A stretch of DNA of 64,000 nucleotides, taken from NCBI GenBank assembly GCA_947087275.1, contig CAMUBZ010000003.1:9132-73131 (forward strand), written 5' to 3'. Each line of letters starts with the position of its first letter. Within the stretch, counting starts at the first letter, position 1. The notes beneath the pieces were generated by a model. The model ran no database searches and was not told the DNA's origin. It saw nothing but the letters and a program-made list of their open reading frames with translations. The stretch comes from an uncultured Candidatus Saccharibacteria bacterium (GTDB lineage Bacteria; Patescibacteriota; Saccharimonadia; Saccharimonadales; Saccharimonadaceae). A program made the position numbers and the translations under genes. Shown here piece by piece: positions 9,757 through 52,168 of this stretch.

Positions 9757-9987
9757 GTGCGCAGCGGGTATACCTATTTGCCTAATACTGCTGGTACATT
9801 TAGACTTGCGGCTAGTGTTGCAGAATACTGGTCATCGCGCGCATCCAGCACACGATTTGATGGAGTAAATGTATCTAGTGCTTACAAATTTGAGTTTAGT
9901 AGTATTATCAATCCTTCTAGTGGCCCAGATGCTAGAGCATATGCTTTCCCCCTCCGCTGCCTTAGTACTGTATTAGGTATGTAGGAG
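9757..9987 (+). repeat. orphan FISUMP/DUF1566-like C-terminal cassette, copy A
   Basis: Runs from GTGCGCAGCGG to CCTCCGCTGCCTTAGTACTGTATTAGGTATGTAGGAG. Open frame VRSGY...YWSSRA...AY...PLRCLSTVLGM*; no SD. Confidence 0.9.
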
Positions 9988-10075
9988 TATGAGAGAACAA
10001 CATGTAAGCATGTTTACATGTTGTTCCGAATCGACGCTCATACCAGACGACGTTAGTCGCCTGGCTATGTAGGAG
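9988..10075 (+). repeat. 3' add-on module (two hairpins) ending in a second TATGTAGGAG
   Basis: Hairpins at 9995-10026 and 10043-10064; direct repeat TATGTAGGAG at 9978-9987 and 10066-10075. Homologous modules follow copies C, F and H. Confidence 0.75.
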
Positions 10076-10105
10076 TGAGAGGGGAGCAGGCACCAATATA
10101 GCGCC

Positions 10106-10133
10106 AAAAAGAGGCTCACGTGGAGCCTCTTTT
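10106..10133. terminator. bidirectional intrinsic terminator (downstream of fusA)
   Basis: AAAAA-GAGGCTC-ACGTG-GAGCCTC-TTTT. Confidence 0.7.
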
Positions 10134-10148
10134 ACAAGCACTGCGATT

Positions 10149-12248
10149 TTATTTAGTATTGCGCTTCTCAATAATATCGGCAGCAACGTTTGGTGGTACT
10201 TCCTCATAAGCCGAAAGTTCCATCGAGCTAGCAGCGCGGCCTTGGCTCATGGAGCGCAAGTCGCTGGTGTAGCCGAAGAGGTTGGCTAGTGGGCAGAATG
10301 CCTTGATGAGTTTGGCACCACCGCTGAGGTCTTCCATACTGTCGATACGGCCACGGCGAGAGTTGATATCGCCAATTACGTCACCCATGAATTCCTCTGG
10401 AGTGGTGATTTCAAGTTTCATGATAGGCTCAAGCAGGACTGGATTGGCTTTCTTGATACCTTCGCGAGTAGCAAGACTACCAGCAAGTTTGAAGGCAAGT
10501 TCGTTAGAGTCGACATCGTGGTAGCTACCGTCATAAAGAGTAGCTTTCACATCGACAACTGGATATCCAGCAATTACGCCACCAGCAAGAGTTTCTTCGA
10601 TACCCTTTTGGACTGGCTTGCGGAATTCTTGAGGCACCACGCCACCCTTGATCTGGTCGATAAATTCAAAACCTTTGCCAGGTTCGTTTGGCTCAAATTT
10701 AACCCAAACATCACCGTACTGACCGCTACCACCGGACTGCTTGACGTGCTTACCTTGGGCTTCAGCAGTACCACGAATAGTCTCGCGGTAGGCAACCTGA
10801 GGAGCACCAGTGTTGGCTTCGACGCCGTGCTCTTTGTTGAGACGGTCGATAGCAATTTCGAGGTGAAGTTCACCCATACCAGAGATGATGGTCTGGCCGG
10901 TTTCTTCGTCGGTATGCACGCGCAAGGTTGGGTCTTCTTCGACAAGTTTTTGCAAGCCAAGACCCATTTTTTCTTGGTCGGATTTAGTCTTTGGTTCGAC
11001 CGCCACAGATACTGGAGGATCTGGGAAAGTAATGTCTTCGAGATGGATTGGGTGAGCTGGGTCACAAATAGTGGTACCGGTAGTGACATTCTTCATGCCG
11101 ACTACGGCGGCGATATCACCAGCACAAATCTCGGTGATTTCTTCACGTTTGTCAGCAAACATCCGGACAATACGACCGATGCGCTCCTTGTCACCAGTGG
11201 TGGCGTTGAGCACGGTGTCGCCAGATTTGAGTTTGCCGGCATACACGCGGATGAAAATCAGTTTACCGACGAATGGGTCGGTAGCAATTTTGAAAGCAAG
11301 AGCAGTCAATGGTTCCTTGTCGTCAGCTTTGCGGATAACTTCGTTACCAGTCTTAGGATCAATACCAACGGTTTGGCCTTGATCACGATCGAGTGGGCTT
11401 GGTAAGTAATCTGTCACGAGGTCGAGGACCTTCTCCACAATCACACCACGGCCGTCACCACCAGTGACGAGGAAGAAGTCGCCATCAAGCACGCGCTTAC
11501 GCAAAGCAGCCTTGAGTTCAACTTCGGTGATAGCCTCTTCGCCTTGGTTGAAGAATTTTTCCATTAGGGCTTCATCGGCCTGAACGGCTTCTTCAACTAA
11601 GAGTGAACGAGCATTCTTGGCTTTCTCGAGCATATCAGCTGGGATTTCACCAACTGTGAGTTCGTGATCAGCGTAATCTTTGTAGGTGTAAGCCTTCATG
11701 TCGATAAGGTCGACCACACCGCAAATGTCTTTTTCAAAACCAATTGGCAAGTGAATAGCGACAGCATTCTTGGACAAACGCTTGTGGATACTATCGAGGG
11801 ATTTGTAAAAATCGCCACCGATCTGGTTGATTTTGTTGATGAAACAGATGCGAGGCACGCCATATTTGGTGGCTTGGCGCCAAACCGTCTCGGACTGAGC
11901 CTCAACGCCCATCTTACCATCAAACACTACCACGGCGCCGTCAAGCACGCGAAGTGAGCGTTCCACTTCGGCAGTAAAGTCGATGTGGCCTGGGGTGTCG
12001 ATAATGTTGATTTTGTGATTTTTCCAGTAGACTGTGACAGCAGCAGAAGTAATGGTAATACCACGCTCTTTTTCCTGTTCCATCCAGTCGGTAGTAGCGC
12101 CACCGGTGCCGCCCTTCACTAGGTCGATTTTGTGCTTGAGACCAGTACGATAGAGGATGGCCTCGGACGTAGTAGTCTTACCCGCGTCGATATGGGCAAT
12201 AATCCCAATATTGCGGAATTTTGATAGGTCTTTGACTTCACTTGCCAT
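10149..12248 (-). CDS. fusA: elongation factor G
   Basis: G1 AHIDAGKTT and G3 DTPGH motifs, full five-domain length (699 aa). Confidence 0.95.
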   Translation of the reverse strand: MASEVKDLSKFRNIGIIAHIDAGKTTTSEAILYRTGLKHKIDLVKGGTGGATTDWMEQEKERGITITSAAVTVYWKNHKINIIDTPGHIDFTAEVERSLRVLDGAVVVFDGKMGVEAQSETVWRQATKYGVPRICFINKINQIGGDFYKSLDSIHKRLSKNAVAIHLPIGFEKDICGVVDLIDMKAYTYKDYADHELTVGEIPADMLEKAKNARSLLVEEAVQADEALMEKFFNQGEEAITEVELKAALRKRVLDGDFFLVTGGDGRGVIVEKVLDLVTDYLPSPLDRDQGQTVGIDPKTGNEVIRKADDKEPLTALAFKIATDPFVGKLIFIRVYAGKLKSGDTVLNATTGDKERIGRIVRMFADKREEITEICAGDIAAVVGMKNVTTGTTICDPAHPIHLEDITFPDPPVSVAVEPKTKSDQEKMGLGLQKLVEEDPTLRVHTDEETGQTIISGMGELHLEIAIDRLNKEHGVEANTGAPQVAYRETIRGTAEAQGKHVKQSGGSGQYGDVWVKFEPNEPGKGFEFIDQIKGGVVPQEFRKPVQKGIEETLAGGVIAGYPVVDVKATLYDGSYHDVDSNELAFKLAGSLATREGIKKANPVLLEPIMKLEITTPEEFMGDVIGDINSRRGRIDSMEDLSGGAKLIKAFCPLANLFGYTSDLRSMSQGRAASSMELSAYEEVPPNVAADIIEKRNTK

Positions 12249-12339
12249 AAGTTCGTGTTCCTTTTTATCCTTTTTCTAGACATTAAAAATAGACTTTTCT
12301 ACATTTTAACATAAAATTTAGGGATTTGGTAGGGGTATT

Positions 12340-13996
12340 TTATAGAATTGGCGGCTGGTCGGTAGAGAGGAGGTATAACTTATGTTTGGCACGGGTCAAG
12401 GCGACATAAATCAAACGTTGTTGGTCGGCAATCTCTGCTTCCCTAGTATCGCCAAAAAGTTGAAAAATCGTAGCATGCGGATGTTGACTCTGGATAATAT
12501 CGCGGTTCATTTCTAGCAAGATGACAATATCCGATTCAAGCCCCTTGGATTTATGCATGGTCATGCAACGTACCTGCTGATTAAATGCAGTTGCGGACAT
12601 AATTCCCTGAGCGGACACGAGATGATGCAGGGCTTGCAGGAATACCTCAAGCGTAATGCCGTCAAACGAAGTAAAATTATGGCGATGCAGAAGCATAATA
12701 TCGTTATGAGGATGGCGCTGGATAATGCGCAAGACTGATTTGAGCAATTTGGCCGCACCGATGGGGATTTTCTCGGGTGGGATCTTCCCGGCGGTGGCTT
12801 GGCTGAGCGCTAGCAAAATCTGTCCGTCACCCAAACAGTCTTCGGCTAAGTCGCTTCGGTCAAAACGCACTTTGTTGGGATTATAATGGTAAATTTTGCC
12901 ATGCTTACGGCTGAAGGCCCGAGCAGGAGTGGCTTCTGGGTTGTAATTAGTGAGCATATACCGATTTGCGCGTTCCACAATACGCCGATCGCTACGGTAG
13001 TTGGTGGCAAGCGGAATATTGACTGGGTTTTCAGGGAAGAATTGGGCGAAGTTAATAAAATAGTTCACATCGGAACCGGCAAAACGGTTGATAGCCTGCC
13101 AGTCATCGCCCACACAAAACAGGTGTGCCTCCGGCGTAATCCTACGCATGGCCTGCACTAGAGCAAAGAAAAGATAGGAAAAATCTTGATATTCGTCGAT
13201 CAGGATGTATTTGAGCGGGCGAATGCGTCTACGCAACACATCAGGGCAATTTGAAGACAATAGAAGTTCAGTGGCGGTTGCCATAAGGAGATTAAAGTCG
13301 ATTTTGGGTGCGTGGAGCGCCGCTAGATACCTGCGATAGACATCCAGCGAAACTTGATGAAACCGAATATTTTTGGCAAAATCTGGCTTGTTATGATGCT
13401 CAGCACAATATTGTGATGCCTGAGACTCTAAGTTTTGCAGACCCTGATAGCCAGGGTAATATTGACCGGCGCGCGTAATGAAGTTGTTAGTGATACTAAG
13501 GAGTTCTAGTTGATCTTTGGGAGAAAGTTTAAGGTGAAGTTCTTCTAAGGTTTGTTGTAGGAGTTGAGCGATAAGCGCGTCATGTTCCTCGGTACTAATG
13601 ATTTCCGGACGTTCGCCGGCAAGTTTTACGAGGTCGAGGGCGAATTTGTGGAAGGTGGAAGCGGGAGAGATATTGCGAGCACTGGCCGAAGAAATGCTGG
13701 CGAGAGGAATATTATCCACTTTAACTTCTGCAATCCGCTGGTTGACCTCGGCCGCGGCGGTGCGGTTGAACATAAAAATGGCGATTTCGTCGAGGTTAGC
13801 CAGGCCGTGAGCCACCAGATAGGCAACTTTAGCTACGATGACGCGAGTTTTGCCCGAACCCGCTCGTGCTGTGACCAAAGTATTCTTATGATGATCAATC
13901 GCAGCGCGTACTTGATCATCGTCTAGGGTGTAAGGCTGACCAAAAAGTGTAACGTGGTCGCGAAACCAGTTACTGGCATCCAATACGCTATTCAAG
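12340..13996 (-). CDS. UvrD/REP/PcrA-family ATP-dependent DNA helicase (start uncertain)
   Basis: Walker A ARAGSGKT, DEYQD, TMHKSKGLE and YVALTRAK motifs. The long-ORF N-terminus (13997-14118) runs through RNA candidate E2 and is probably not translated; likely TTG/GTG start near 13996. Confidence 0.8.
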
Positions 13997-14107
13997 CACA
14001 AAGTCCTTCCTGGGTGACGTGTCGCTCGGGCCTGTCGTGGCAGGCCTCGCGCACTGCATGCTCGCCCGTGGGCTCCGCACCCACCCAGAAAGTTCTTTGC
14101 ACTTGAA
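13991..14107 (-). ncRNA. structured GC-rich intergenic RNA candidate E2 (related to E1)
   Basis: 13-bp closing stem (13991-14003 with 14095-14107) has two G-U pairs only on the minus strand. Second stem 14010-14016 with 14082-14088; core hairpin GGCCTG-TCGTGG-CAGGCC at 14029-14046 is shared with E1. Confidence 0.45.
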
Positions 14108-14118
14108 CTGCATATCAA

Positions 14119-15537
14119 CTATTGCAATTTCTTTCGCAGGATTTCTTGTACTGAGCTCGGGTTGGCCTTGCCCTTGGATTCTTTCATCACCTGTCCAACA
14201 AGGAAGCCCAAGACTTTTTCTTGGCCAGCCTTATAATCCGCTTGCGCTTGCTGAGTTTCGGGCTTGGCGAGCACGGCATCAACAATCGCTTCAAGTGCGC
14301 CCAAATCGTTCTCTTGTACTACGCCCAGTTCCTTCGCAATCGTGTGCGTATCTTTGTAATGCATTTCGGGATCAAAGAATTTGAGAAAAACTTCCTTGGT
14401 GCCAGTACTGGATAGCTCATTCTTGGTGTTCATCGCTACCAAGTCAAGTAGTTGGGTTTTGCTCGGCAACTCATCGTTGAGCAAACTAGTGTTTTCTTCG
14501 GCCAACAAGACCGACGAAAAGAGGTTAGCGACTTTTTTGATGGCTGAACTGTCTTCAAGTTCGGCCAACTTCCGCATCAACTGTGGATAATCTAACAAAA
14601 CTTCAATCAAATCTGTTGGCAAAATTTCGGCAAACTGCTGGCGATACCACATTGGCATCTTGGGCAAATTCTGGCGTGCTTGTTCGACGTCGTCAGCGGA
14701 TAACCTGAGTGGCGGGATATCAGGCTCGGGCATATAGCGGTAGTCGGCCGCACCCTCTTTGCTACGTTGGCCAGTGGTCTCACCAGTGGCGTCGTTCCAA
14801 CCGCGGGTTTCTTGAATGACTGTCTCGCCTTTTTCCAGTAACTTGGTTTGGCGTTTGATTTCGTATTCCACCACACGCTCCACACTGCGGAAGGAGTTGA
14901 GGTTCTTGATTTCGGTCTTAGTACCAAGTTCACTGCTACCTTCTGGAGCAATGCTAATATTCACATCAAAGCGCATATTACCATTATAGAGGTCGCCAAA
15001 AGTCACTCCGGCATAAGTCATCACGCGCCAGAGTTCCTTGGTATAATCGCGGGCATGCGCCGCACTATGAATGTCGGGCATGGAAACGATCTCGATGAGT
15101 GGAGTACCAGCGCGATTGAGGTCAATCAAACTATAAGCACTCTCGTGAGTGGACTTGCCGGCATCCTCCTCGAGGTGAGCATGCTCTACCCGGACTTTGG
15201 TGCCGTCGGGTAGTTCTACGTAGCCCTCGCCAATAATTGGATGGAAGAGTTGTGTAATCTGATAGCCCTTGGGCAAGTCAGGATAATAATAGTGTTTGCG
15301 GTCAAAACGACTTTCAAGATTAATCTGGGAATTCAGTGCTAAACCAGCCCGAATCGCAAACGGAATTGCTTCCTGATTAAGTCGCGGCAACATACCAGGC
15401 AAACCATAATCCACGGGCGAAACACAAGAGTTAGGCTCTTTGCCGCGCGCATCATTATCGACTTCGGAAAAAAGTTTGGTCTTAGTACAGAGCTGTACAT
15501 GGCATTCAATACCAATTGTAGGAATGTATTTTGTCAT
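14119..15537 (-). CDS. gatB: Asp-tRNA(Asn)/Glu-tRNA(Gln) amidotransferase subunit B
   Basis: Full-length GatB pattern (IGIECHVQL, RFDVNIS, C-terminal YqeY-like tail). Confidence 0.93.
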   Translation of the reverse strand: MTKYIPTIGIECHVQLCTKTKLFSEVDNDARGKEPNSCVSPVDYGLPGMLPRLNQEAIPFAIRAGLALNSQINLESRFDRKHYYYPDLPKGYQITQLFHPIIGEGYVELPDGTKVRVEHAHLEEDAGKSTHESAYSLIDLNRAGTPLIEIVSMPDIHSAAHARDYTKELWRVMTYAGVTFGDLYNGNMRFDVNISIAPEGSSELGTKTEIKNLNSFRSVERVVEYEIKRQTKLLEKGETVIQETRGWNDATGETTGQRSKEGAADYRYMPEPDIPPLRLSADDVEQARQNLPKMPMWYRQQFAEILPTDLIEVLLDYPQLMRKLAELEDSSAIKKVANLFSSVLLAEENTSLLNDELPSKTQLLDLVAMNTKNELSSTGTKEVFLKFFDPEMHYKDTHTIAKELGVVQENDLGALEAIVDAVLAKPETQQAQADYKAGQEKVLGFLVGQVMKESKGKANPSSVQEILRKKLQ

Positions 15538-15956
15538 TAGATAGCCCCCAAATCTTTGAGCGCTTGGCGGAAGGCGGCAAGGGCGCGACTGACTTGACCA
15601 TAATCAACTTCAAAATCGTCGTCATGTGCGATTTGGTTGCGCATCTTGTGCGCTGCCCACACTGCATTAGGTTTTTCAAATCTGTCCGTTACACGCTTGA
15701 GGCGTTCACCCATGGTCTTGCCTGGGAGGCCGAGTTCGTTCAAAGCACGATCAAGCAATTTATCCGCAGCGATTACTGACATTTCGTATGTCCGGGGGTC
15801 GTCGCGCACGAGGCCATTTTCGATCTTGAGCCACCGCGTCTGATATTCTTCAACATCAAAAGCATGGCTGTGGCGACCAGTCAAGGTCATGGCCAAAAGC
15901 GCCAAAATCCCTACCGCGACAATCGCAATTACCAAAAAGATTACCGGTGAACTCAT
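15537..15956 (-). CDS. hypothetical membrane-anchored protein inserted between gatA and gatB
   Basis: N-terminal TM helix (VIFLVIAIVAVGILALLAM); ATGA overlap with gatB. Confidence 0.55.
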   Translation of the reverse strand: MSSPVIFLVIAIVAVGILALLAMTLTGRHSHAFDVEEYQTRWLKIENGLVRDDPRTYEMSVIAADKLLDRALNELGLPGKTMGERLKRVTDRFEKPNAVWAAHKMRNQIAHDDDFEVDYGQVSRALAAFRQALKDLGAI

Positions 15957-15957
15957 A

Positions 15958-18787: not shown

Positions 18788-19000
18788 TTCCTACATACCT
18801 AATACAGTACTAAGGCAGCGGAGGGGGAGACTATTCCAACGATCATAAGCACTCTCAGGGTATGTTCCATTAGGGCTAAAACCCAGATTATAAGCGTGTG
18901 TGGTAGATGGATAAGCAGTTGATGCCCAGTATACTCCATAACCGCCTATATTCCTTAATCCACCATTATCGTTGTCTATGCCTATAAACCCGCTGCGCAC
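18788..19000 (-). repeat. orphan FISUMP/DUF1566-like C-terminal cassette, copy B
   Basis: Same conserved borders. Frame MRSGFIGIDN...YWASTAYPSTTHAYNL...PLRCLSTVLGM*. Confidence 0.9.
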
Positions 19001-19030
19001 GAAGTAAAGAGGGTATGCTATAATAAAATT

Positions 19031-19369
19031 ATGAGAATTTTACGAGGGTCAATTTCGAAAGATAGTTTAGCGAATGCAGCAGTGGTTTTTGATGACTCAA
19101 TGGTCAAAGGCGTAGTAGATGTAAAACGCGGACTGCTCGCGCTAGACGCTGAACTACATGCAGATTTGGAAAAGATACTTCTAGAGGATGGCTCGGCGCA
19201 AGATGATGTCTGGGGGATTAACCTCTGGTTTGAGGATGAGGGTGAGGATTTTGTGGAATTTGATTCGATGATTAACGTACGTCCGCGTCAAAACAACCGT
19301 AGTCGTAGCGTAGAGAACCCTGAATTACGGCAGCAAATTACGAAAGTCGTGCAAAAATGGATACAATAA
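19031..19369 (+). CDS. hypothetical protein
   Basis: 112-aa acidic ORF with protein-like composition. Family not recognised with confidence. Confidence 0.5.
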   Translation: MRILRGSISKDSLANAAVVFDDSMVKGVVDVKRGLLALDAELHADLEKILLEDGSAQDDVWGINLWFEDEGEDFVEFDSMINVRPRQNNRSRSVENPELRQQITKVVQKWIQ

Positions 19370-20449: not shown

Positions 20450-20674
20450 GTGCGCAGCGGGCTCTTCACGCTTGCTACTACTGACGTCCTGAGATACGTT
20501 GCTACTGGTGGTTATGCATGGTCATCACGCAGCTCATCGACAAATCATTTTGGCACGGTTGTTCCAAGTGCTTACTATTTTGTTGTCAGCACGAGCAACA
20601 TGTCGTCGTATAGCGATCATCACTACTACGGCCTCCCCCTCCGCTGCCTTAGTACTGTATTAGGTATGTAGGAG
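20450..20674 (+). repeat. orphan FISUMP/DUF1566-like C-terminal cassette, copy C
   Basis: Conserved borders. Frame MRSGLFTLATT...YAWSSRSS...AYYF...PLRCLSTVLGM*. Confidence 0.9.
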
Positions 20675-20758
20675 GCGAATGAAGTAAAAAGTGCAAGCCC
20701 TTTTTACTTCTGAGCCGACGTCTATACCAGTCAACGTCAGTTGGCTGGTATGTAAGAG
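20675..20758 (+). repeat. 3' add-on module (two hairpins) ending in TATGTAAGAG
   Basis: Hairpins at 20681-20710 and 20727-20748. Near-identical to the module after copy H, except for an inverted hairpin core. Confidence 0.75.
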
Positions 20759-29648: not shown

Positions 29649-29876
29649 GTGCGCAGCGGGATGATACCTCCAGACGCTGGTAGACTATGGCGTATTGGTC
29701 AGAATGGCTATAACTGGGCATTACGAGCAATGTCTATTCATACCGATGGTACAGGATATCTTAGCGCTTATGACCTAAAGATTGACGCTAATATAGTTTA
29801 TCCGTCAGAGGGGCCAAGTTATCGTTTCTACGGTCTCTCCCTCCGCTGCCTTAGTACTGTATTAGGTATGTAGGAG
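29649..29876 (+). repeat. orphan FISUMP/DUF1566-like C-terminal cassette, copy D
   Basis: Conserved borders. Frame VRSGMIPPDAG...YNWALRA...AYDL...LSLRCLSTVLGM*. Confidence 0.9.
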
Positions 29877-29959: not shown

Positions 29960-30361
29960 TTATTGAATGTCAATAATTTGACCACGACGATTTATAAACT
30001 TAATTTGTTTGATTTCCTTGATTGCAGTAAAACACACTCTTAGCTTTTTCTCAATTGCTTTGTCTGGGATATGTTTCATGCGCCGTGAGTCAAAGATAAT
30101 AGAATCCGATTGCCACTTACCTCGTTTGAGATTCCTTTCTACCGTTTTTAAGTTGCTCGCTCTTGGTGACTTCATTTCCCAAACGACACCATCAACTAAA
30201 CAATCCGCCGTTTGTCTTCCCTTTTTATCTATTGTTTTTAAGAACTCCACTACATGGCCGTACTTGATTAGAACTTTAGCTGTTTCCTGTTCATGAGGCC
30301 AAACGTCGACTCCGACAGGAATGATGATTTTGCCCTGTTTTTCAGTTTTAGGTTTCCTCAT
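29960..30361 (-). CDS. PD-(D/E)xK nuclease-like small protein (restriction-endonuclease fold)
   Basis: Motif E...AD-x10-WEMK, 133 aa. Paralogs at 33726-34127 and 44263-44649, with a conserved leader TTATGCTAGGCTCAGGAG-ATG. Confidence 0.55.
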   Translation of the reverse strand: MRKPKTEKQGKIIIPVGVDVWPHEQETAKVLIKYGHVVEFLKTIDKKGRQTADCLVDGVVWEMKSPRASNLKTVERNLKRGKWQSDSIIFDSRRMKHIPDKAIEKKLRVCFTAIKEIKQIKFINRRGQIIDIQ

Positions 30362-30440: not shown

Positions 30441-30653
30441 CTCCTACATACCTAATACAGTACTAAGGCAGCGGAGGGGGAAAGCGCCCCAACGATGATC
30501 TGGAATATCTGACGGGTTGACTGTTATATTAAAATAGAGGTCATACGCATCACTAACGGATGCAGCTGTGCGTGATGACCACCAGAGACTACCATAGCCG
30601 GCATTCCGGAAAGTGCCAGTAGTATTCGCCGGATTAACATTCCCGCTGCGCAC
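30441..30653 (-). repeat. orphan FISUMP/DUF1566-like C-terminal cassette, copy E
   Basis: Conserved borders. Frame VRSGNVNPANTTGTFRNAGYGSLWWSSR...AYDL...FPLRCLSTVLGM*. Confidence 0.9.
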
Positions 30654-33725: not shown

Positions 33726-34127
33726 TCAATTATTTTTAAATTTCTGCAGCTTTCCAGTTTTGCTTATAATATGTAAATTACGTACTTTGCGAGTACTCCA
33801 AAAACAGGTTGAAAGCTGTTTAATTGCTAGAATATCTGAGCCCTTGAGCCGGCGCAAATCCATGATAACGTTACTAGATTGGCTAGCTGCACGATAAAAC
33901 AGGCGCTCAATTGCTTTTCTAGTATTTACTGTTGGGCTTTTGGCCTCCCATTCTAGTCCATCCATCACAAAGCCTGGTCGTTTATCTTTTGGCGTATGAG
34001 ATGCGGGAATCAGCTCCAGTCTTTTAGATAAGTTAGTATAAAACAGAATTGTGTCCATTTCTTGAGGCTCAGGTTTGGCTCCGTTAGGAATTATCTTCCC
34101 TCGTTCAGCGTGTTGAATTTGTTTCAT
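33726..34127 (-). CDS. PD-(D/E)xK nuclease-like small protein, paralog of 29960-30361
   Basis: Same length (133 aa), WEAKSP motif and a conserved leader TTTATGCTGGGCTCAGAGA-ATG. The first acidic PD position is PG here. Confidence 0.5.
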   Translation of the reverse strand: MKQIQHAERGKIIPNGAKPEPQEMDTILFYTNLSKRLELIPASHTPKDKRPGFVMDGLEWEAKSPTVNTRKAIERLFYRAASQSSNVIMDLRRLKGSDILAIKQLSTCFWSTRKVRNLHIISKTGKLQKFKNN

Positions 34128-34228
34128 TCTCTGAGCCCAGCATAAACCAGCAAAATTTACCAAGCACAAGCACGATATTTTAGAAAAATTGCATGCTTGC
34201 ACGTACTAGCCAAAAAGCGTTAAAACTA

Positions 34229-43914: not shown

Positions 43915-44004
43915 TTCCTACATAGCCACATCACTACGTTCTGTGGTATGAGCGTCGTCTCGAAAGCAAAAGAACAAGTTCACTTGTTCTTTTGCTTTAC
44001 TCAA
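43915..44004 (-). repeat. 3' add-on module (two hairpins) following copy F
   Basis: Hairpins at 43963-43998 and 43926-43946. Ends in TATGTAGGAA (43915-43924 on the plus strand). Confidence 0.7.
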
Positions 44005-44214
44005 CTCCTACATACCTAATACAGTACTAAGGCAGCGGAGGGAGTAACCGTAAGAGAGGAATCGCGGGCTATTGGATGGCTGCACAGTAAGATTTCCTAT
44101 TACAAGATTATATGCATTCTGCGCGCTTTCTAGCCATGAAGACCACCAACATCCGCTAAAAACTGTGCCCTTTAAAGTGCTAGCAGTTCTTAAATCAATA
44201 TACCCGCTGCGCAC
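44005..44214 (-). repeat. orphan FISUMP/DUF1566-like C-terminal cassette, copy F
   Basis: Conserved borders. Frame MRSGYIDLRTAS...CWWSSW...AYNL...YSLRCLSTVLGM*. Confidence 0.9.
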
Positions 44215-44735: not shown

Positions 44736-44960
44736 GTGCGCAGCGGGTATATCTTCCCAACTGTTGAGAGTGGTCACAATGCGGGTTCGCGAGCTATGGG
44801 CGCCACTGGAGACTATTGGACATCGCGAGCATCTTCTACATCACCTTCTAATGCCTATTGGCTTGAAATTACTACAACAGTGCTTCCGTCACGCACTCCG
44901 CTCAATCGCTACAATAGTTTCCCCCTCCGCTGCCTTAGTACTGTATTAGGTATGTAGGAG
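44736..44960 (+). repeat. orphan FISUMP/DUF1566-like C-terminal cassette, copy G
   Basis: Conserved borders. Frame MRSGYIFPTVES...YWTSRASS...AYWL...FPLRCLSTVLGM*. Confidence 0.9.
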
Positions 44961-45141: not shown

Positions 45142-45351
45142 GTGCGCAGCGGGTACGTCTACTTGCCTAATACTAGGACTCATGATGGCGCTGGCCAATA
45201 TGGATATTGGCGAACATCTCGTGCCTATTCATCAACTACACAGGCTTACCGCTTAGGGTTTCATGCTAGCATCGTATCACCATCTTTGAGTGATCCACGC
45301 TCCAACGCTTTCCCCCTCCGCTGCCTTAGTACTGTATTAGGTATGTAGGAG
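45142..45351 (+). repeat. orphan FISUMP/DUF1566-like C-terminal cassette, copy H
   Basis: Conserved borders. Frame MRSGYVYLPNT...YWRTSRAYSSTTQAYRL...FPLRCLSTVLGM*. Confidence 0.9.
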
Positions 45352-45436
45352 GCGAATGAAGTAAAAAGGGCTTGCACTTTTTACTTCTGAGCCGACGTCC
45401 ATACCAGTCAACGTTAGTTGACTGGCTATGTAGGAG
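45352..45436 (+). repeat. 3' add-on module (two hairpins) ending in a second TATGTAGGAG
   Basis: Hairpins at 45358-45387 and 45404-45425. Direct repeat TATGTAGGAG at 45342-45351 and 45427-45436. Confidence 0.75.
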
Positions 45437-45444
45437 TGGAGTAA

Positions 45445-45477: not shown

Positions 45478-45490
45478 CCCACTGAAAAAA

Positions 45491-46113: not shown

Positions 46114-46142
46114 ATTATATCACACCTTATCAAAAAAGTCAA
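46114..46142 (-). promoter_or_regulatory. consensus promoter TTGACT-17-TATAAT
   Basis: -35 at 46137-46142 and -10 at 46114-46119 on the minus strand. Confidence 0.6.
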
Positions 46143-46183
46143 GTGCTTGAGGCGCTGAACTTGACTTTGATGAATAATATTGG

Positions 46184-46915
46184 CTATTTGATAAGGATTT
46201 CGTCTTCGGGCAGTTGCTGAAAACCGGCCGCAGAGGTAAAACCGTCATAGTAATTAGTTTTGACGGGCGGGTGACCAATCTTGTTGGCGGCTTTGACAAT
46301 TTCGTGCACGTCGTCAGTCAACTTATAGATGCGCATGTCACCCTTAGAAATCATGCCGAGAGGCAACATTTTGCTCTGGAAAAACTTGTCTAGTGGTTTC
46401 CAATAGTTCTTGCCGAAGAAGAATACGGGCATGTGTGGCATTTTGCCTTCTTGCATCAAGATGATGATTTCGGCAAGTTCGTCCAGCGTGCCGAGGCCAC
46501 CTGGGAACATCACATAGACCTTGGCGGACATCGCCAACATCACTTTGCGCGCGAAGAAATATTGGAATTGCATCGTGTCGGTAAGATAAGGATTGGGAAA
46601 TTGCTCGTGTTTGAGGGTAATATTGAGGCCAATACTACGACCGCCGTACTCAAAAGCGCCTTGGTTGGCGGCTTCCATAATCCCGGGGCCACCACCAGTA
46701 ATCACAGCGTGACCATTCTGCGCCAACAGTTGACCAAGTTCGCGAGCCTTTTTGCAATACTTATTATCTTGTGGCACTCGAGCGGAACCAAAAATTGTGA
46801 CGCCTTGCGGATAAGTGCGAACGATTTTGAGACCACGTTCAAGGTCGTTGGCGTAGGCCTTGGCGCGCTCCACGTCGGCGGCTTCGAGTTCGGCTAAAAT
46901 CTTTTCGTCTAACAT
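46184..46915 (-). CDS. LOG family protein (TIGR00730 Rossmann fold; nucleotide 5'-monophosphate nucleosidase-like)
   Basis: GGGPGIMEAAN and PGGLGTLDEL motifs. Confidence 0.8.
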   Translation of the reverse strand: MLDEKILAELEAADVERAKAYANDLERGLKIVRTYPQGVTIFGSARVPQDNKYCKKARELGQLLAQNGHAVITGGGPGIMEAANQGAFEYGGRSIGLNITLKHEQFPNPYLTDTMQFQYFFARKVMLAMSAKVYVMFPGGLGTLDELAEIIILMQEGKMPHMPVFFFGKNYWKPLDKFFQSKMLPLGMISKGDMRIYKLTDDVHEIVKAANKIGHPPVKTNYYDGFTSAAGFQQLPEDEILIK

Positions 46916-46926
46916 AGTTCCCTTTC

Positions 46927-47922
46927 TTATAGAGTTAAATCAGTAATTTTTTGAATTGGCATGGGGTGCAGATCTTCATCCCCAGACAATATGCCTGCCT
47001 TGGCACCGTATTTTTGCACGACACTGGCGGCGTTGGCCGCGGCGAATTGCAGTGCACGGGCGAAATGGCTATCTTTGGATTTGCCTGGCGGTTCACTCGT
47101 ATAAGCCGCCAAGAACCCGGCACCAAAGGCATCGCCGGCACCAGTGGCATCGCGCATTTTGACTTGCTCATAAACGCCTAGTCGGTAAACCTCATGATGG
47201 TCGGTAGCAATTGAACCCATTTCACCGTCGGTAATGATGACGGTCTCGCAATAGGCAGCCAAATGTACTAATAGTTCCGTTAGGACGACGCCCGGAACGA
47301 TTTTGGCGGCTTCACGCTTGTTGACCAGCAAAACATCAACATCGCTCAACAAGCCAATGAGTTTGGGCAGTTGTTTGATTTCCAGCTCACCGGGATTAAA
47401 CATAATCTTGGCACCCAGCGCATGTGCAGTTTCGAAAAAGGCCAATAGCGTATCCATATCACCACGCAGGCTCGTGACATAGAGCCAATCGGGAGCGATT
47501 AACTCTAGATCGCTAGCGGAAAGATTATGGAAGCGACCCGAAACCCCACGGTGAGTGAGGATCGTGCGCTCGCCACTTTTGGCATCGAGCATCACTACAG
47601 AACAGCCAGTTTTGCCGCGCAAGAATTCGACATAACTACTGTCGACATTTTCTTCGTCGAGGCAAGCCAACACGGCTTCGCCAGCTGCATCGTGAGCCAA
47701 GTTGCCCATATAAATCGTCTCATGGCCATGTCTAGCAAAACTCACGGCGGCATTAGTTCCCCCTCCACCAACTTCAAAGGCAACCTTATCGATGTCGACC
47801 TTGGTGCCAATCACCAACTGGCCAAAAATCGACTGCCCAGCGACTTCGGAGCCAACAAAATCATCCCGGTCAATCAGGTAGATATCTTGCAGAGCCGAAC
47901 CAAGCGAGACAATCCGCGCCAT
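46927..47922 (-). CDS. PfkB-family carbohydrate kinase (ribokinase-like)
   Basis: GGGGTNAA and DATGAGDAFGAGFLAA motifs. Confidence 0.8.
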   Translation of the reverse strand: MARIVSLGSALQDIYLIDRDDFVGSEVAGQSIFGQLVIGTKVDIDKVAFEVGGGGTNAAVSFARHGHETIYMGNLAHDAAGEAVLACLDEENVDSSYVEFLRGKTGCSVVMLDAKSGERTILTHRGVSGRFHNLSASDLELIAPDWLYVTSLRGDMDTLLAFFETAHALGAKIMFNPGELEIKQLPKLIGLLSDVDVLLVNKREAAKIVPGVVLTELLVHLAAYCETVIITDGEMGSIATDHHEVYRLGVYEQVKMRDATGAGDAFGAGFLAAYTSEPPGKSKDSHFARALQFAAANAASVVQKYGAKAGILSGDEDLHPMPIQKITDLTL

Positions 47923-48570
47923 CTAAATCAAAACGCCTTTCTTTTCACATTCGGCTAGCAATGACTGATACATAGCGGCGGCATCGGCGGCCTGAGTAAT
48001 AGCGCTGCCAACATTAATAACGTCAATTCCGGCATGTGCCAAGGCACGCACGTTGCTGAGGTTGGCGCCGCCATCCCAACCGATCTCGACATCGGCTTTG
48101 ATATTGCGAATCAGTGGCACCTTTTCGGTTTGCATCATGTCAATAACGCCACCTTGGCTACCCAACTCACCCGCAAAAATCATGACGTGGTCGGCAACTT
48201 GAATCAGATTAGCGACTCGGCCCGGAAAAGTTGTCTTGATCATGGCAAGACCCACCTTGATGCCAGCATCTTTGAGCTGCGTGAATAAACTATTTAAATC
48301 ATCGTCCACCTCGGCGTGCAAAATACAGAGGCGTGGCTTAAGGTTGAGAATATCGGACAAATGTTCGGATGGCCGCGCAGACATCACATGCAGGTCGATC
48401 GCCACACCCTCAGGAATCTTCATACTAGCAAGCGGGACCAAAGTTGTTGGCGCAAAACTACCGTCTGAGGCGTCAATTTGAATACGTTTGGAAAACTGGC
48501 TAAATTTGGTCAAACTTTCATCAAAAAACGCTTGGTTGTCGGTAGTAATGGTAGGAACGATGGCCGCCAT
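47923..48570 (-). CDS. rpe: ribulose-phosphate 3-epimerase family protein
   Basis: Collinear with Rpe blocks: IVPTITTDN, QIDASDGSFAPT, IDLHVM, WDGGA, VGSAI. Confidence 0.65.
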   Translation of the reverse strand: MAAIVPTITTDNQAFFDESLTKFSQFSKRIQIDASDGSFAPTTLVPLASMKIPEGVAIDLHVMSARPSEHLSDILNLKPRLCILHAEVDDDLNSLFTQLKDAGIKVGLAMIKTTFPGRVANLIQVADHVMIFAGELGSQGGVIDMMQTEKVPLIRNIKADVEIGWDGGANLSNVRALAHAGIDVINVGSAITQAADAAAMYQSLLAECEKKGVLI

Positions 48571-48575
48571 AATTT

Positions 48576-49100
48576 CTATTCCTCCTCGTCGTCTTCGTCG
48601 TCGCCACCAAACTTGAGGCTAAATTCGATGCCACCACTAACTTTGGCGTGGTCCTCATCGAGACGTTTGACGCGGCGCACATAGCGTTCCTCAAGTTTGG
48701 GATGCGTGTGGCACATGGTCTTGATGAGTTTTTCCATGGTATCAACATCAAGTTTGTCGCCAGAAAGGCAAAGAATGTTGGCGTGGTCGTCTTCGCGGCC
48801 GGCTTTGACGCTCTCGAGCGTGCTAGCGTTGATCGCACGCGCACCTTTGATGCGGTTGGCTTGCATACAGACACCATGCGCTGAACCACAAATCAGCACA
48901 CCGAAGCTGTATTTATCTTTGGCGACGGCCCGAGCCACAGCCAGCGCCGGATCGTTAAAATCGTCATCTTCGACTAGACTGTCGGCTCCCAAATCTTCGA
49001 CAATAACGTTTTCGTGGCAATCGCGGATAAGAGGCAGAAGGTCTTCCTTTTTCTGAAAACCACGATGGTCTGCTCCGACATAGATATGATATTCTGGCAT
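48576..49100 (-). CDS. rpiB: ribose 5-phosphate isomerase B (RpiB/LacA/LacB family)
   Basis: ADHRG and GVLICGSAHGVCMQANR motifs. ATG at 49100 follows AGGAGG. Confidence 0.85.
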   Translation of the reverse strand: MPEYHIYVGADHRGFQKKEDLLPLIRDCHENVIVEDLGADSLVEDDDFNDPALAVARAVAKDKYSFGVLICGSAHGVCMQANRIKGARAINASTLESVKAGREDDHANILCLSGDKLDVDTMEKLIKTMCHTHPKLEERYVRRVKRLDEDHAKVSGGIEFSLKFGGDDEDDEEE

Positions 49101-49128
49101 ATTTCCTCCTTTATTCCTCTTTAGTCTA

Positions 49129-50133
49129 TTATACTTCGCGGCCAAAATCAACCGAGAGTTCGACGAGGCGGTTAGAATAGCCCCACTCGTTGTCGTACCA
49201 AGCCACAACTTTGACCAAATTGCCACCCACGACATCAGTCAAAGGCAAATCAACCACAGCTGAATGCGAATTACCCCGGAAATCCGACGAGACCAATTCG
49301 TCGTGCGTAACGTCCAAAATTCCCTCGTAATATGGCTCTTCGGCGGCCTTTTCAAAGACAGCATTGAGCTCTTCGACAGTAACGTCGCGTTTGAGTACAG
49401 CAGTAATATCAGCAAGGCTCACCACAAGACTAGGTACACGGACGCTTAGTCCATTGAAGCGGTTCTCAAGACTCGGAATTGTGAGTGCGGCGGCCTTGGA
49501 AGCACCAGTCGTAGTTGGCACAATATTGACGGCGGCGGCTCGCGCTTCGCGGATATCTTTGGCAGAATCGTCGACTAATTTCTGCGAGGCGGTGTAGGAA
49601 TGAACGGTGGTCATCATGGCCTTTTCGATGCCGAAATTATCTTCGATAACTTTCATCACTGGGGCGATGCAGTTCGTAGTACATGACGCGCAGCTCAAAA
49701 TATCATCATCAGCGGTAACGACTTCTTCGTTGACGCCGAGGACGACAGTCTTGGCACCGGGGCCTTTGGCCGGGGCAGAAATCACGACTTTGCGCGCGCC
49801 AGCCTTGATATGTAGACGGGCGTCGGCCGGATTGCAAAAACGTCCAGTGCACTCGAGGACGGTGTCAATTTCTAACTTGTCCCAAGGTAATTTGATGGGA
49901 TCGGGCTCAGACATAAAGAGGATTTTGGTGCCGTCAACGATAATATGCTTGTCATCAAAGCCAACTTCGTGGTCATACACACCATAAGCAGAATCATACT
50001 TGAGCAAATGGGCGAAGGTGGCGGGGTCGCCAAGGGTATTGATGGCGACGATTTCGGCATCACGGCGCTCAAAAGCAATCTTGAACGCACAACGCCCAAT
50101 CCGTCCAAATCCGTTGATTGCTAGTCTCACCAT
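49129..50133 (-). CDS. gap: type I glyceraldehyde-3-phosphate dehydrogenase
   Basis: NGFGRIGR and active site SCTTNC. Confidence 0.93.
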   Translation of the reverse strand: MVRLAINGFGRIGRCAFKIAFERRDAEIVAINTLGDPATFAHLLKYDSAYGVYDHEVGFDDKHIIVDGTKILFMSEPDPIKLPWDKLEIDTVLECTGRFCNPADARLHIKAGARKVVISAPAKGPGAKTVVLGVNEEVVTADDDILSCASCTTNCIAPVMKVIEDNFGIEKAMMTTVHSYTASQKLVDDSAKDIREARAAAVNIVPTTTGASKAAALTIPSLENRFNGLSVRVPSLVVSLADITAVLKRDVTVEELNAVFEKAAEEPYYEGILDVTHDELVSSDFRGNSHSAVVDLPLTDVVGGNLVKVVAWYDNEWGYSNRLVELSVDFGREV

Positions 50134-50220
50134 TTGTTTTTGCCTCCTAGTTCTAGATTTATGTTTATTATAGCATAAGTTGAATCAAGATAATGTTGTG
50201 AAAATTACAATACTTACTTC

Positions 50221-50445
50221 GTGCGCAGCGGAGGCTTTGCCTTAACGGTTGCGAATGGCATCCTCAGACGTGCTGGCCAAGGTGGTATTTATTGGTCAAA
50301 TCAGGCTGGAATATACATATCTGATATATCGGCTCCTGCATATTATCTCGATTTAAATGCTACCAGTGTGGCTTCATCCGGGCTAAATAGTCGTTACCAT
50401 GGTTTCCCCCTCCGCTGCCTTAGTACTGTATTAGGTATGTAGGAG
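50221..50445 (+). repeat. orphan FISUMP/DUF1566-like C-terminal cassette, copy I
   Basis: Conserved borders. Frame MRSGGFALTVAN...IYWSNQ...AYYL...FPLRCLSTVLGM*. Confidence 0.9.
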
Positions 50446-50453
50446 TGGGAGAT

Positions 50454-50482
50454 AAAAAATGACCCCTTGCGGGGCCATTTTT
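50454..50482. terminator. bidirectional intrinsic terminator (after rpsG)
   Basis: AAAAAATGACCCC-TTGC-GGGGCCATTTTT. Confidence 0.7.
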
Positions 50483-50495
50483 ACTAACTCTATAA

Positions 50496-50975
50496 TTACG
50501 CGCGAGCGAAGTGAGCAAAGGCGCGGTTGGCCTCGGCCATGCGGTGACAGTCTTCTTTCTTCTTGAAGGCAGTACCGGTTTCGTTGTAAGCGTCGATAAT
50601 CTCAAGTTCGAGGCGCTTGGCGTATGGCATTCCCTGACGGGCACGAGCAGCTTGCACCAGCCAAGAAAAGGCAAAGTGCTGCTGACGGTGGCCGGAAATT
50701 GGGAATGGAATTTGATAGTTAGCACCACCAACACGGCGAGACTTAACTTCAAAATCTGGGCTGATATTAGCCAGAGCCTTTTCGAACACAGCCACTGGAT
50801 CTTCGGAATTCAACTTCTTGGCGGCACCCTCGAGGGCGGCATAGACTGCACGCTCAGCGGCCTGCTTCTTGCCGTCAAGCATGGACTTATTAATCAAACG
50901 CTGCACCAAGACCGACTGATATTTGCGATCCGGGTTAGTTTTGCGCTGAAGAGACTTTGTAACTTTGCGTGACAT
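50496..50975 (-). CDS. rpsG: 30S ribosomal protein S7
   Basis: Typical S7 sequence (DRKYQSVLVQRLINKSMLDGKK). Confidence 0.95.
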   Translation of the reverse strand: MSRKVTKSLQRKTNPDRKYQSVLVQRLINKSMLDGKKQAAERAVYAALEGAAKKLNSEDPVAVFEKALANISPDFEVKSRRVGGANYQIPFPISGHRQQHFAFSWLVQAARARQGMPYAKRLELEIIDAYNETGTAFKKKEDCHRMAEANRAFAHFARA

Positions 50976-50978
50976 AGA

Positions 50979-51389
50979 TTATTCTCCCTTCTTCGCACCG
51001 TATTTAGAACGGCCTTGCTTACGATTTTGTACACCTTGAAGGTCAAGCGTACCACGCACAATGTGATACCGCACACCTGGAAGATCTGGCACACGACCGC
51101 CACGAACAAGCACTACGGCGTGCTCCTGGAGGTTGTGACCTTCACCACCGATATAGGCCCAAACTTCTTGACCGTTGGTCAAGCGCACACGAGCGACTTT
51201 GCGCAAAGCGGAGTTTGGTTTCTTTGGAGTCTTGGTAGTGACCTTGAGACAGACGCCACGCTTGAGTGGAGCAGCCTGCTCATAACGCTTGGTCTTGAGC
51301 GTGTTAACAATGGAACCGAGCGCCGGAGCCTTGGATTTCTTGGCGGCTTTCTGGCGTGGTTTACGAATCAACTGGTTGATAGTTGGCAC
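50979..51389 (-). CDS. rpsL: 30S ribosomal protein S12
   Basis: [24 protein letters not shown] and [13 protein letters not shown] motifs. GTG start. Confidence 0.95.
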
Positions 51390-51465
51390 GATAAAATTCC
51401 CTAATTAAACTTAATATTTTGGCATTTTGTTTACAGCAATGCAAAATGCCCGAAACTCTTTCTTG

Positions 51466-51494
51466 ATTATAGCGCAAATTGCGAAAAAAGGCAA
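51466..51494 (-). promoter_or_regulatory. candidate rpsL promoter (TTGCCT-17-TATAAT) with a leader hairpin at 51421-51451
   Basis: -10 at 51466-51471 and -35 at 51489-51494 on the minus strand. Confidence 0.5.
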
Positions 51495-51535
51495 GAACTT
51501 TATTGCTTGCGTATCGCTCCTGCGCACCTAATACA

Positions 51536-51751
51536 GTGCGCAGCGGGTACTTCAGTTTGGCTACTACTGCTGGCGTCCTCAGTCACACTAGTGCAGCTGG
51601 CGACTGGTGGTCATCGCGAGCGTCTTCGTCGGCTGCTTATGGGTACCACTCGAACTTCGGTGCTTCAAGCGTGGCTCCGTCGGCCGACTCTGGTAATCGT
51701 TACGTCGGTCGTCCCCTCCGCTGCCTTAGTACTGTATTAGGTATGTAGGAG
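51536..51751 (+). repeat. orphan FISUMP/DUF1566-like C-terminal cassette, copy J
   Basis: Conserved borders. Frame VRSGYFSLATTAG...DWWSSRASS...RPLRCLSTVLGM*. Confidence 0.9.
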
Positions 51752-51981
51752 TACGAAATGATAAAATCAAGTTGTGGATACACCTCCATGGGTACCAAAA
51801 GCAGCCCGAGCTCACTCCTCCGCTAGCTGGCGGTCCTCGAGAAAAGATCGTGAAGTTCCCTTCTGAGTTCTAAGAGAAACATTGAGGCTTGATGATTTTT
51901 GGCTACGGCCAGAAAGACAATATATGAACTTCTAACCATTCCGGTCACTGACTGCGATTTTTTCGTTGTTTGAGTAGAGGC

Positions 51982-52168
51982 GTGCGCAGCGGGTATGTCA
52001 ATCCGGCTAACTCGGCTGGTACCTTTAGGAACGCTGGCAACAACGGCAACTGGTGGGCGTCGCGAGCCTACTCGTCCACTACCCACGCGTACAACCTCAA
52101 CGTTTATACGACGGTGAATCCGTCAAACAACAGCAATCGTTACGCCGGTTTCTCCCTCCGCTGCCTTA
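51982..52168 (+). repeat. FISUMP/DUF1566-like cassette, copy K, 3'-truncated after CCGCTGCCTTA
   Basis: Frame VRSGYVNPANSAGTFRNAGNNGNWWASRAYSSTTHAYNL...FSLRCL. Homology ends at 52168 and unrelated sequence with a promoter follows. Confidence 0.85.

Follow-up and report, generated by a model that had tools for sequence, protein, structure and literature searches.

Template repeat and orphan variable repeats

A 64,000-nt stretch from an uncultured Candidatus Saccharibacteria bacterium (GenBank assembly GCA_947087275.1, contig CAMUBZ010000003.1, positions 9,132 to 73,131 of the forward strand; hereafter the window, with positions counted from its first nucleotide) carries eleven dispersed copies, A to K, of a short bordered repeat. 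We conclude with high confidence that one of them, K, is the template repeat (TR) of a diversity-generating retroelement (DGR) and that the other ten, A to J, are orphan copies of a variable repeat (VR). For the system as a whole, the best explanation is a chromosomal Saccharibacteria DGR with K as the template and A to J as a reservoir of orphan VRs for swapping, a reading that we consider moderately probable.

The bordered pattern GTGCGCAGCGG-N160-190-CTCCGCTGCCTTA has 11 matches in the window, with none expected (100 shuffles), and these lie exactly where a preliminary description, made from the window sequence alone, had placed eleven repeats. Its amino-acid pattern for the cassettes was also correct, as was its report of uninterrupted frames: the full copies A to J are 210-231 nt long, each length is divisible by 3, and in each a conserved GTG and a conserved TAG bound an open frame of 68-75 codons. 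Upstream of the GTG, the frame is shut within 2-13 codons in most copies. All copies share ..CCCTCCGCTGCCTT, after which A to J run into AGTACTGTATTAGGTATGTAGGAG and K into a conserved tail of another kind. All ten full copies have the same 35-nt 3' border (100% identity), and inspection of the sequence revealed a 7-nt inverted repeat common to the 5' and 3' borders (GCAGCGG/CCGCTGC).

Within one genome, the interiors of the cassettes are about 50% diverged while the borders are 100% identical at the DNA level. At interior codons with conserved amino acids (W, S-S, A-Y, P, R and others), third-position diversity is 0.56 among 58 cassettes and 0.68 in the window, and the nucleotide diversity of positions 1 and 2 of the same codons is 0.17-0.30. 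Hence, the interior has been shaped by protein-level selection. Third-position diversity in both borders is 0.00-0.11; hence, in the borders it is the DNA sequence itself that is maintained, as would be expected of cis-acting or recombination sequences. The frame is intact in 61 of 62 distinct cassettes, and every indel is in-frame.

A dedicated RNA for the template

Copy K (51982-52168, plus strand) had been taken for a truncated copy. We found instead that it is a distinct element, which has the 5' border and the GC-rich part of the 3' border in common with the family and then its own conserved tail, GCCGCGG..GGTGCCGATCTTT. Asparagine makes up 19% of its codons (9 AAC and 3 AAT), and each of A to J has 0-1 AAC. 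K is intergenic, non-coding, adenine-rich and invariant, as is expected of a template. Its orthologues occupy the syntenic site between the genes for ribosomal protein S12 and trigger factor in related strains and keep the asparagine pattern. Between K and K18, mismatches fall at 2 of 40 adenines and at 17 of 145 other bases, so adenines are the best-conserved bases. The TR-specific tail (..GCCGCGGGGGTGCCGATCTTT, 52169-52194, plus strand) replaces the VR-type tail and is conserved in K, L018, L110, L014, P0022, P0454 and P0449. This arrangement, a GC-rich stretch followed by tails that diverge between VR and TR, appears to be the layout of the initiation of mutagenic homing (IMH) site and its TR counterpart (IMH*).

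Upstream of K lie a predicted extended -10 promoter (TGATAAAAT, 51759-51767, plus strand) and a conserved structured leader of the putative template RNA (51775-51981, plus strand). The promoter, TGnTAnAAT, has the same place upstream of the leader in the window, L018 and L110, and blocks of the leader are common to these three TR loci (974-1186 in L018 and 378-609 in L110), which differ in genomic context and in TR class. For the leader of about 200 nt, the consensus fold has 10 compensatory pairs among only 3 sequences; in one hairpin 5 of 7 pairs are changed on both sides, and GAAGUUC/GAACUUC forms a long-range helix. By inspection, AAAGATCG, which is invariant in the leader, is complementary to CGATCTTT, which is invariant in the tail, and the leader sequence AAAGAUCG is complementary to CGAUCUUU in the TR tail. 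Rfam has no family for the leader, and the fold of leader plus TR as a single sequence is not significant (z = -1.2). The leader is probably the scaffold that the reverse transcriptase (RT) of this DGR binds. Hence, the asparagine-rich template, its synteny and its promoter, structured leader and tail identify K as a TR in a dedicated structured RNA.

The template also accounts for where the cassettes vary. The columns that hold AAY codons in K are the hypervariable columns of 58 cassettes, with a mean entropy of 3.12 bits vs 1.52 bits elsewhere (p = 1e-6). In these columns, 82% of the cassette codons have a pyrimidine as third base and 90% of the residues are of the NNY type. Hence, the diversity of the orphans bears the imprint of a DGR.

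A second length class of TR has its own asparagine-rich templates and the same tail (P0451, P0454 and P0449). Two other loci have the TR-type tail after an asparagine-poor, VR-like interior: L014 (6316-6526), which also lacks the leader, and P0467, which is present on 9 contigs. These may be corrupted or self-mutagenised TRs, or the products of VR-to-TR recombination. In L102, a locus with a full-length target gene (described below), the motif CCGCGGCGAGAGTGCCGATC at about 11845-11868, some 200 nt 3' of the expressed VR, nearly matches the TR tail (GCCGCGG.GGGTGCCGATC, window 52174-52191), which places a TR-tail-like element downstream of a target VR.

Reverse transcriptase and adenine mutagenesis in relatives

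About 1 kb downstream of the full-length target gene in L102 and L107, we found a 413-aa open reading frame (ORF) that passes the Pfam RVT_1 threshold (37 bits vs 29.6). Its best match among solved structures is 8ub7 (E = 4e-21), which is Brt of Bordetella phage BPP-1, as confirmed by a 100% match to the annotated brt gene. The RT has the motifs IGNLTSQ (aligned with IGSLTSQ of Brt) and YVDD. A 332-aa ORF lies upstream of the RT gene, co-oriented with it and overlapping it.

Comparison of the TR in L110 with the expressed VRs of L107 and L108 gave 15 mismatches each, at 11 of 42 adenines and 4 of 161 other bases (Fisher p = 6.7e-6). For the class of K, the expressed VR of L021, the only one available and from a different species, is mismatched to the K/K18 consensus positions at 12 of 38 adenines vs 12 of 128 other bases (p = 0.0015). 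L107 and L108 differ from one another at 11 sites of the 180-nt aligned VR interior (6.1%) vs 1.4% across 1.5 kb upstream, and 8 of these 11 differences are transversions. At the level of sequence, these comparisons show DGR activity in the relatives. From the same relatives, we infer that an RT and a full-length target are present in the genome of the window as well.

The full-length target gene

A profile of the 11 translations matched 539 proteins in a collection clustered at 90%; the best 120 of these 539 are all 69-130 aa long, without a Pfam domain and without a name. With an exhaustive representative library, the same profile matched 2,862 proteins, multi-domain giants included. One of these 2,862, P0142 (569 aa), is a complete protein with a signal peptide, an N-terminal β-sandwich domain and a FISUMP-type domain. 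The latter has the canonical blocks D-x-R-D-G-x-x-Y...C-W-M-x-Q-N-L and C-P-K-G-W, and the protein ends in ...PLYFVRSG-(variable)-LRCLSTVIDI. The full-length relatives form a family of at least 252 proteins. In general, the target in relatives is a secreted protein of about 560 aa with a pilin-like N-domain and a C-terminal FISUMP domain, whose last ~65 residues vary from strain to strain between the borders.

Full-length relatives pass TIGR02145 with 49.9 and 46.2 bits (cutoff 41.65) over profile positions 33-175, the L107 protein falls slightly under this cutoff with 39.4 bits, and P0159 scores 92.5 bits against PF09603. The FISUMP-type homology proposed in the preliminary description is hence borne out, and its extent has to be corrected: the cassettes span about positions 121-175 of the 176 of the model, which is roughly the last third rather than the C-terminal half. 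In the profile search with the cassette translations that it had suggested, cassettes alone remain under the cutoff (K, E = 0.037 for TIGR02145 and E = 0.0085 for PF09603) and A to I as stand-alone cassettes have no match to FISUMP profiles.

When P0142 was searched against the window with tblastn, the matches were confined to residues ~494-569 and to the eleven repeats; residues 1-493 have no counterpart in the window, in line with the reported absence of the N-terminal part of the domain. The full-length gene in relatives has the same 5' border (TTCGTGCGCAGCGGG) and 3' border (CTCCGCTGCCT.AGTACTGTA..) as the cassettes. Related Saccharibacteria hence hold the recipient gene with matching borders that had been postulated. 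The 13 variants examined from a single cluster at 90% identity are all but constant over residues 1-487 and vary only from FVRSG to PLRCLSTV, in several length classes. The VR thus stands at the 3' end of a coding gene in the full-length genes of relatives, which is not true of A to J. Since A to J have no upstream ORF (there is none in ~60 cassette copies) and no N-terminal match, we class them as orphan VR copies and not as DGR targets.

The predicted model of P0142 has a predicted local distance difference test score (pLDDT) of 82.5, and a structure search with the whole protein matched only pilin-like folds, by way of the N-domain. Residues ~60-205 of the model resemble chaperone-usher pilin and adhesin subunits (CfaB, Csu and FimA; Foldseek E ~ 5e-5). 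The modelled N-domain points to a surface adhesin of fibre-like form in an organism that has no chaperone-usher system. Overall, the target is likely a hypervariable adhesin of Saccharibacteria, with a pilin-like N-domain and a FISUMP domain whose tip varies.

The ten orphans

The orphans fall into a short class, which is that of K, and longer classes. The short class consists of B (18788-19000, minus strand), which keeps 24 nt of upstream target-gene sequence (..PLYF); E (30441-30653, minus), which is nearest to K (56% aa); F (44005-44214, minus); H (45142-45351, plus); and J (51536-51751, plus), which lies within an insertion. The long copies, all on the plus strand, are A (9757-9987), whose protein is found identically on 5 other contigs; C (20450-20674), which is flanked by a hairpin on either side; D (29649-29876); G (44736-44960); and I (50221-50445). 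Hence, with five long-class orphans, one genome holds scaffolds that its resident TR cannot generate. The statement that several copies follow terminator hairpins holds in that G and H have one directly 5', and a strong hairpin stands 6-10 nt past the tail in 6 of the 10 orphans.

A to J end in the VR-type, IMH-like tail, not the TR tail, and homology to the target gene extends 0-24 nt 5' of the GTG, depending on the copy. Hence, A to J were copied from the VR end of the target gene and not from the TR. In other genomes, the 5' truncation points of orphans can lie further upstream, at DGVNYNIAAAPLYF, MLPTAGSQ or CPKGW.

Translation of A to J is unlikely. As the preliminary description had noted, there is no Shine-Dalgarno sequence; the start-like codon that the copies have in common is the GTG, which is a valine codon of the full-length gene. 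Its further statement that there is no other start-like codon is not strictly true, since in copy A an ATG occurs in frame 42 nt upstream, and D, E, J and K offer in-frame TTGs. The upstream ORF extensions of the copies are mutually unrelated, and promoter-like sites at the orphans do not exceed the chance level. In other genomes, a +1 variant of the tail abolishes the stop codon so that the frame continues as GHIE... Hence, the missing Shine-Dalgarno sequences, the unrelated extensions, the upstream terminators, the chance-level promoters and the unconserved stop all argue that A to J are not translated.

Orphans are stable in situ. Identical orphan sequences occur on up to 32 contigs, each full-length variant occurs on 1-2 contigs, and 4 orphans are identical in 3 assemblies that differ at 0-1 positions over 14-20 kb.

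Several features accompany the orphans. An extended 3' module follows A (10024-10077, plus strand), C (20690-20748), H (45385-45438) and F (~43915-43965, minus strand). It consists of a long sequence-variable hairpin, ..CGACG..ATACC, a second hairpin (CCAG....GTTA....CTGG) with compensatory differences between copies in its stems, and a second tail-like motif, CTATGTAGGAG. The module corresponds to repeat families D5 and D2 and may be the extended native 3' flank, a cis element, of the expression locus of this species. Just 5' of J, at 51497-51535, part of the cassette 5' border recurs in inverted orientation (..GTATCGCTCCTGCGCAC vs the reverse complement GTACCCGCTGCGCAC). Head-to-head pairs of cassettes 18-100 nt apart are common in the CAYXCA01 metagenome-assembled genome (MAG; L003, L004, L006, L007, L009, L010 and L016). 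In other lineages, P0121, P0124 and P0127 have vls-like tandem arrays of 3-5 cassette-like units in one frame (..FPLRC-STIVQLPLAF-VRSG..).

The window encodes two small CdiA_C-like ORFs (PF18451), at 29960-30361 and 33726-34202, both on the minus strand, the first of which sits between the 3' tails of D and E, both directed towards it. CdiA_C-like homologues flank the full-length DGR target in L102, L107 and L021 and are polymorphic between strains (74% aa, L102 vs L107). These ORFs may be a toxin/immunity-like module that travels with the VR locus.

Genomic context

The window is a dense segment of bacterial chromosome with genes for ribosomal proteins S12 and S7, GAPDH and trigger factor; it has no tRNA gene and no Rfam match. 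Orphan copies of the variable tip take up about 3.7% of the 64 kb. Several Candidatus Saccharibacteria MAGs have the border sequence, which frequently recurs many times within a MAG and frequently forms tight clusters. The orphans number 10 in the 64 kb here and ~45 across the fragments of one MAG, and databases contain hundreds of distinct sequences. A metagenome scan anchored on GAPDH returned only relatives of at most 68% identity, none of which has the cassettes.

Extended -10 boxes (TGnTATAAT) stand 5-8 nt before an ATG at 19001-19031 (TGCTATAATAAAATTATG at 19031), 9697-9745, 51466-51475 and other genes, which suggests, from the spacing, that leaderless mRNAs may be frequent in this genome. 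Upstream of several orphans, the string 'ttattatagca' is such a TGnTATAAT promoter as seen from the other strand. An unrelated 44-nt inverted repeat (6723-6766 and 6861-6904; 82% complementary, arms 94 nt apart) has its left arm within the 3' end of the ORF at 5722-6819 and its right arm within the 5' end of the ORF at 6871-7563.

Cassette replacement at the expression locus

Over ~8 kb that take in the gene body, both native flanks, the downstream genes and the RT, the independent assemblies L102 (ENA) and L107 (JGI) share 98-100% identity. In the ~200 nt between GTGCGCAGCGGG and GGTTTCCCCCTCCGCTGCC, their identity is only ~55%, with indels. Hence, one class of cassette has been replaced by another in situ at the expression locus, as the preliminary description had anticipated for the segment between the borders.

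The tail variant differs between genomes and is common to all copies inside one genome; hence, the copies evolve in concert. Class replacement with native flanks, concerted borders, VR-like TR loci, tandem arrays and orphan density all favour a donor reservoir, and that orphans donate sequence into the expressed VR is a fair prospect which, on balance, we put slightly on the doubtful side.

One candidate for a direct transfer was downgraded. More than 20 contigs have the orphan P0094 at the same place behind a FemAB gene, and its nucleotide sequence matches the VR of the nominally full-length P0368 at 100% identity. The match runs on for at least 250 nt into the 3' flank of the orphan itself (locus L106), so it reflects either a real crossover or, on the more cautious view, an assembly chimera via a shared 54-nt repeat. 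The evidence from populations comes from short-read metagenome assemblies, which are broken or mis-joined at these repeats. Among the contigs with the expression locus, L106 switches to the orphan flank, L108 diverges 165 nt downstream and has no RT module, and L109, set aside as uninformative on donors, ends 12 nt past the gene. In public MAGs of these organisms, mis-joins at the repeats are probable.

Proposed mechanism and alternatives

In the mechanism that we propose, K would be transcribed from its own promoter as a leader-TR-tail RNA. A Brt-like RT encoded elsewhere in the genome would make cDNA from the TR RNA, misincorporating opposite adenines, and the cDNA would replace the VR at the 3' end of the ~560-aa target gene. 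A to J would be VR copies, truncated at the 5' end and with an IMH-like tail, scattered in intergenic DNA and untranslated. Their diversity would have arisen by DGR mutagenesis while they were in an expressed VR, and they would now be stable archived variants of several scaffold classes. By homologous recombination via the borders conserved in DNA, this reservoir would be exchanged into the expressed VR and, occasionally, the TR locus. Such exchange would give switching of scaffold class with indels, which is beyond the reach of adenine mutagenesis. That the system works in both tiers, with DGR point mutagenesis of the adhesin tip plus a genome-wide archive of orphans exchanged with the VR and the TR locus, we propose tentatively and with more doubt than belief.

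Several observations weigh against this mechanism. Motif searches and tblastn found no RT motif or homologue in the 64-kb window or the first 17 loci, and neither the RT nor the full-length target lies within the window. No Avd-like accessory protein was recognised, and the 332-aa ORF has no match in Pfam, NCBIfam or PADLOC. The TR is not next to the RT, which is atypical for DGRs, and there is no TR within ±10 kb of the L102 target. The C-type-lectin fold expected for the variable domain was not confirmed: the FISUMP domain modelled alone (pLDDT 90.6, predicted template modelling score 0.91) found the Lcl C-terminal domain as its best match in the PDB with E = 1.2. Its best match among viral structures is a FISUMP-annotated phage protein (E = 0.01), and a profile search against PDB sequences gave no match. 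The label 'lectin fold' therefore rests on family membership and not on a comparison of folds.

Other points concern the orphans and their use. K compared with A to J has no adenine bias (adenine mismatch 0.57, equal to that with any other copy as reference); hence, A to J are not current products or targets of K. J is in the window and absent from the related strain L018. Hence, the turnover of orphans can be recent, and intact frames are weak evidence for selection. Among the loci compared, there is no clean orphan sequence in an expression locus with both native flanks. The class differences between strains could also stem from different TR classes, and a matching long-class TR exists for L107 and L108.

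The simple form of the DGR reading, with A to J as the VRs of K, was rejected owing to the missing adenine bias and to differences in length and at non-adenine positions. These same features, together with the identity of orphans across contigs and in three assemblies, indicate that A to J are not being rewritten now. A phage origin was also rejected, as the border pattern is not in the viral contigs of IMG/VR.

The alternative that survives best, although we regard it as unlikely, is that the orphans are functionless by-products, relics of duplication, aberrant retrohoming or recombination that persist since they are young and harmless. The recent insertion of J fits this account, as do the stability of orphans that K does not rewrite, the stop codon lost in some genomes with the +1 tail, the absence of dedicated promoters above chance and the precedent of sporadic truncated 'suspicious' targets in the DGRs of Treponema denticola (PMC4891356). 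Relics should hardly reach such a density in a reduced genome (10 in 64 kb, ~45 in one MAG), nor keep 61 of 62 frames intact with only in-frame indels and borders that are identical in DNA around interiors ~50% diverged. The clustering of 5' truncation points 0-24 nt from the VR start, the tandem in-frame arrays of other lineages and the class replacement at the expression locus also speak against mere debris.

That A to J are active remote targets, non-coding VRs which the cDNA of the TR still rewrites via the IMH-like tail, is highly improbable. All ten have the tail expected of an expressed VR, they share the GC-rich stretch with K, and the hairpin 6-10 nt after the tail in 6 of 10 is reminiscent of the cruciform that DGR targets often have there. 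Their wide differences from K in length and at non-adenine positions oppose this, 5 of 10 belong to length classes other than that of K, and, while the expressed VR is different in nearly every sample, the same orphan sequences come back on as many as 32 contigs and in three near-clonal assemblies.

The preliminary description had read the repeats as donor cassettes of the pilS or vls type. What stands is that they are promoterless partial copies that share borders with a full-length gene; the main mechanism is a DGR, and direct transfer is not demonstrated. As the sole mechanism, a silent-cassette system of the pilS/vls/MgPar type that works by RecA-type gene conversion without a retroelement would explain the 5'-truncated copies, the in-situ replacement with indels and the identity of P0094 to the VR of P0368. 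It is largely refuted by the adenine-specific mismatches between TR and VR, the Brt-like RT that adjoins the target gene in relatives, the asparagine-rich K within its dedicated structured RNA and the coincidence of hypervariable columns with the AAY codons of the TR; furthermore, the P0094 identity extends into the orphan flank and is possibly chimeric. We therefore give this reading very little credence.

Equally little can be said for cassettes as stand-alone genes for 7-8 kDa proteins or as a MITE-like (miniature inverted-repeat transposable element) mobile element with terminal inverted repeats: open frames are kept, gene callers predict proteins of 69-130 aa and the borders have the 7-nt inverted repeat, but there is no Shine-Dalgarno sequence, the sole common start-like codon is a valine codon of the full-length gene, the upstream extensions are unrelated, the place of the stop varies from genome to genome, a segment that makes up only the last third of a larger domain probably would not fold by itself, there was no sign of a transposase or of a target-site duplication, and the border pattern is missing from viral contigs. 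The suggestion of a new mobile or att-like element likewise found no support.

Relation to known systems and implications

The system resembles known DGRs (the prototype brt/TR/mtd of Bordetella phage BPP-1 and those of Legionella, Treponema denticola and Patescibacteria of the candidate phyla radiation, CPR) in its Brt-similar RT with IGxxxSQ and YxDD motifs, its TR rich in asparagine (AAC), a VR at the C-terminal end of a surface protein, adenine-specific mismatches and the GC-rich stretch at the 3' end of both TR and VR before tails that differ (IMH vs IMH*-like). Unlike in those DGRs, the TR here lies at a great distance from the RT, with a promoter of its own and, in place of a TR-RT spacer, a structured leader of ~200 nt upstream, no Avd-like accessory protein is recognised, and each genome has dozens of gene-less orphan VRs in several length classes that do not match the resident TR. 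DGRs are known in CPR, also in the Saccharibacteria strain TM7x (PMC8144416; bioRxiv 10.1101/258137).

With pilE/pilS of Neisseria, vlsE/vls of Borrelia and MgPa/MgPar of Mycoplasma genitalium, the system shares promoterless, 5'-truncated copies of the variable part of one surface protein, either dispersed as for MgPar or, in other lineages, in tandem in-frame arrays as for vls. It also shares their conserved DNA borders around variable interiors and the replacement of whole segments at the expression site. It differs from them in that its diversity carries the imprint of adenine mutagenesis, with a TR and an RT, and in that one-way conversion from orphan to expression site is not demonstrated. 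The single truncated VR-bearing ORFs known as suspicious targets in Treponema denticola are also similar in being short (58-136 aa) and in having no N-terminal part (PMC4891356). There they occur once per isolate and are treated as decay products, whereas here ten occur in 64 kb with strict borders and intact frames. In the literature we found no description of large dispersed repertoires of orphan VRs with strictly conserved borders, of a TR remote from the RT that has a separate promoter and is preceded by a structured leader, or of several scaffold classes that coexist in one genome.

The repeats have practical consequences. They break metagenome assemblies and produce chimeric contigs at the target gene, the cassettes are now annotated as hundreds of unrelated 'hypothetical proteins', and DGR finders that require a TR near the RT or a VR within a gene miss both this TR and the orphans.

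Saccharibacteria are obligate epibionts with tiny genomes, and how they attach to their hosts is poorly understood. Our analysis names a likely hypervariable adhesin of these bacteria together with its DGR template RNA. If the orphans are used as a recombination reservoir, this would be the first DGR coupled to an archive of silent cassettes, and the reservoir would extend DGR variation from point changes on one scaffold to the switching of scaffolds.

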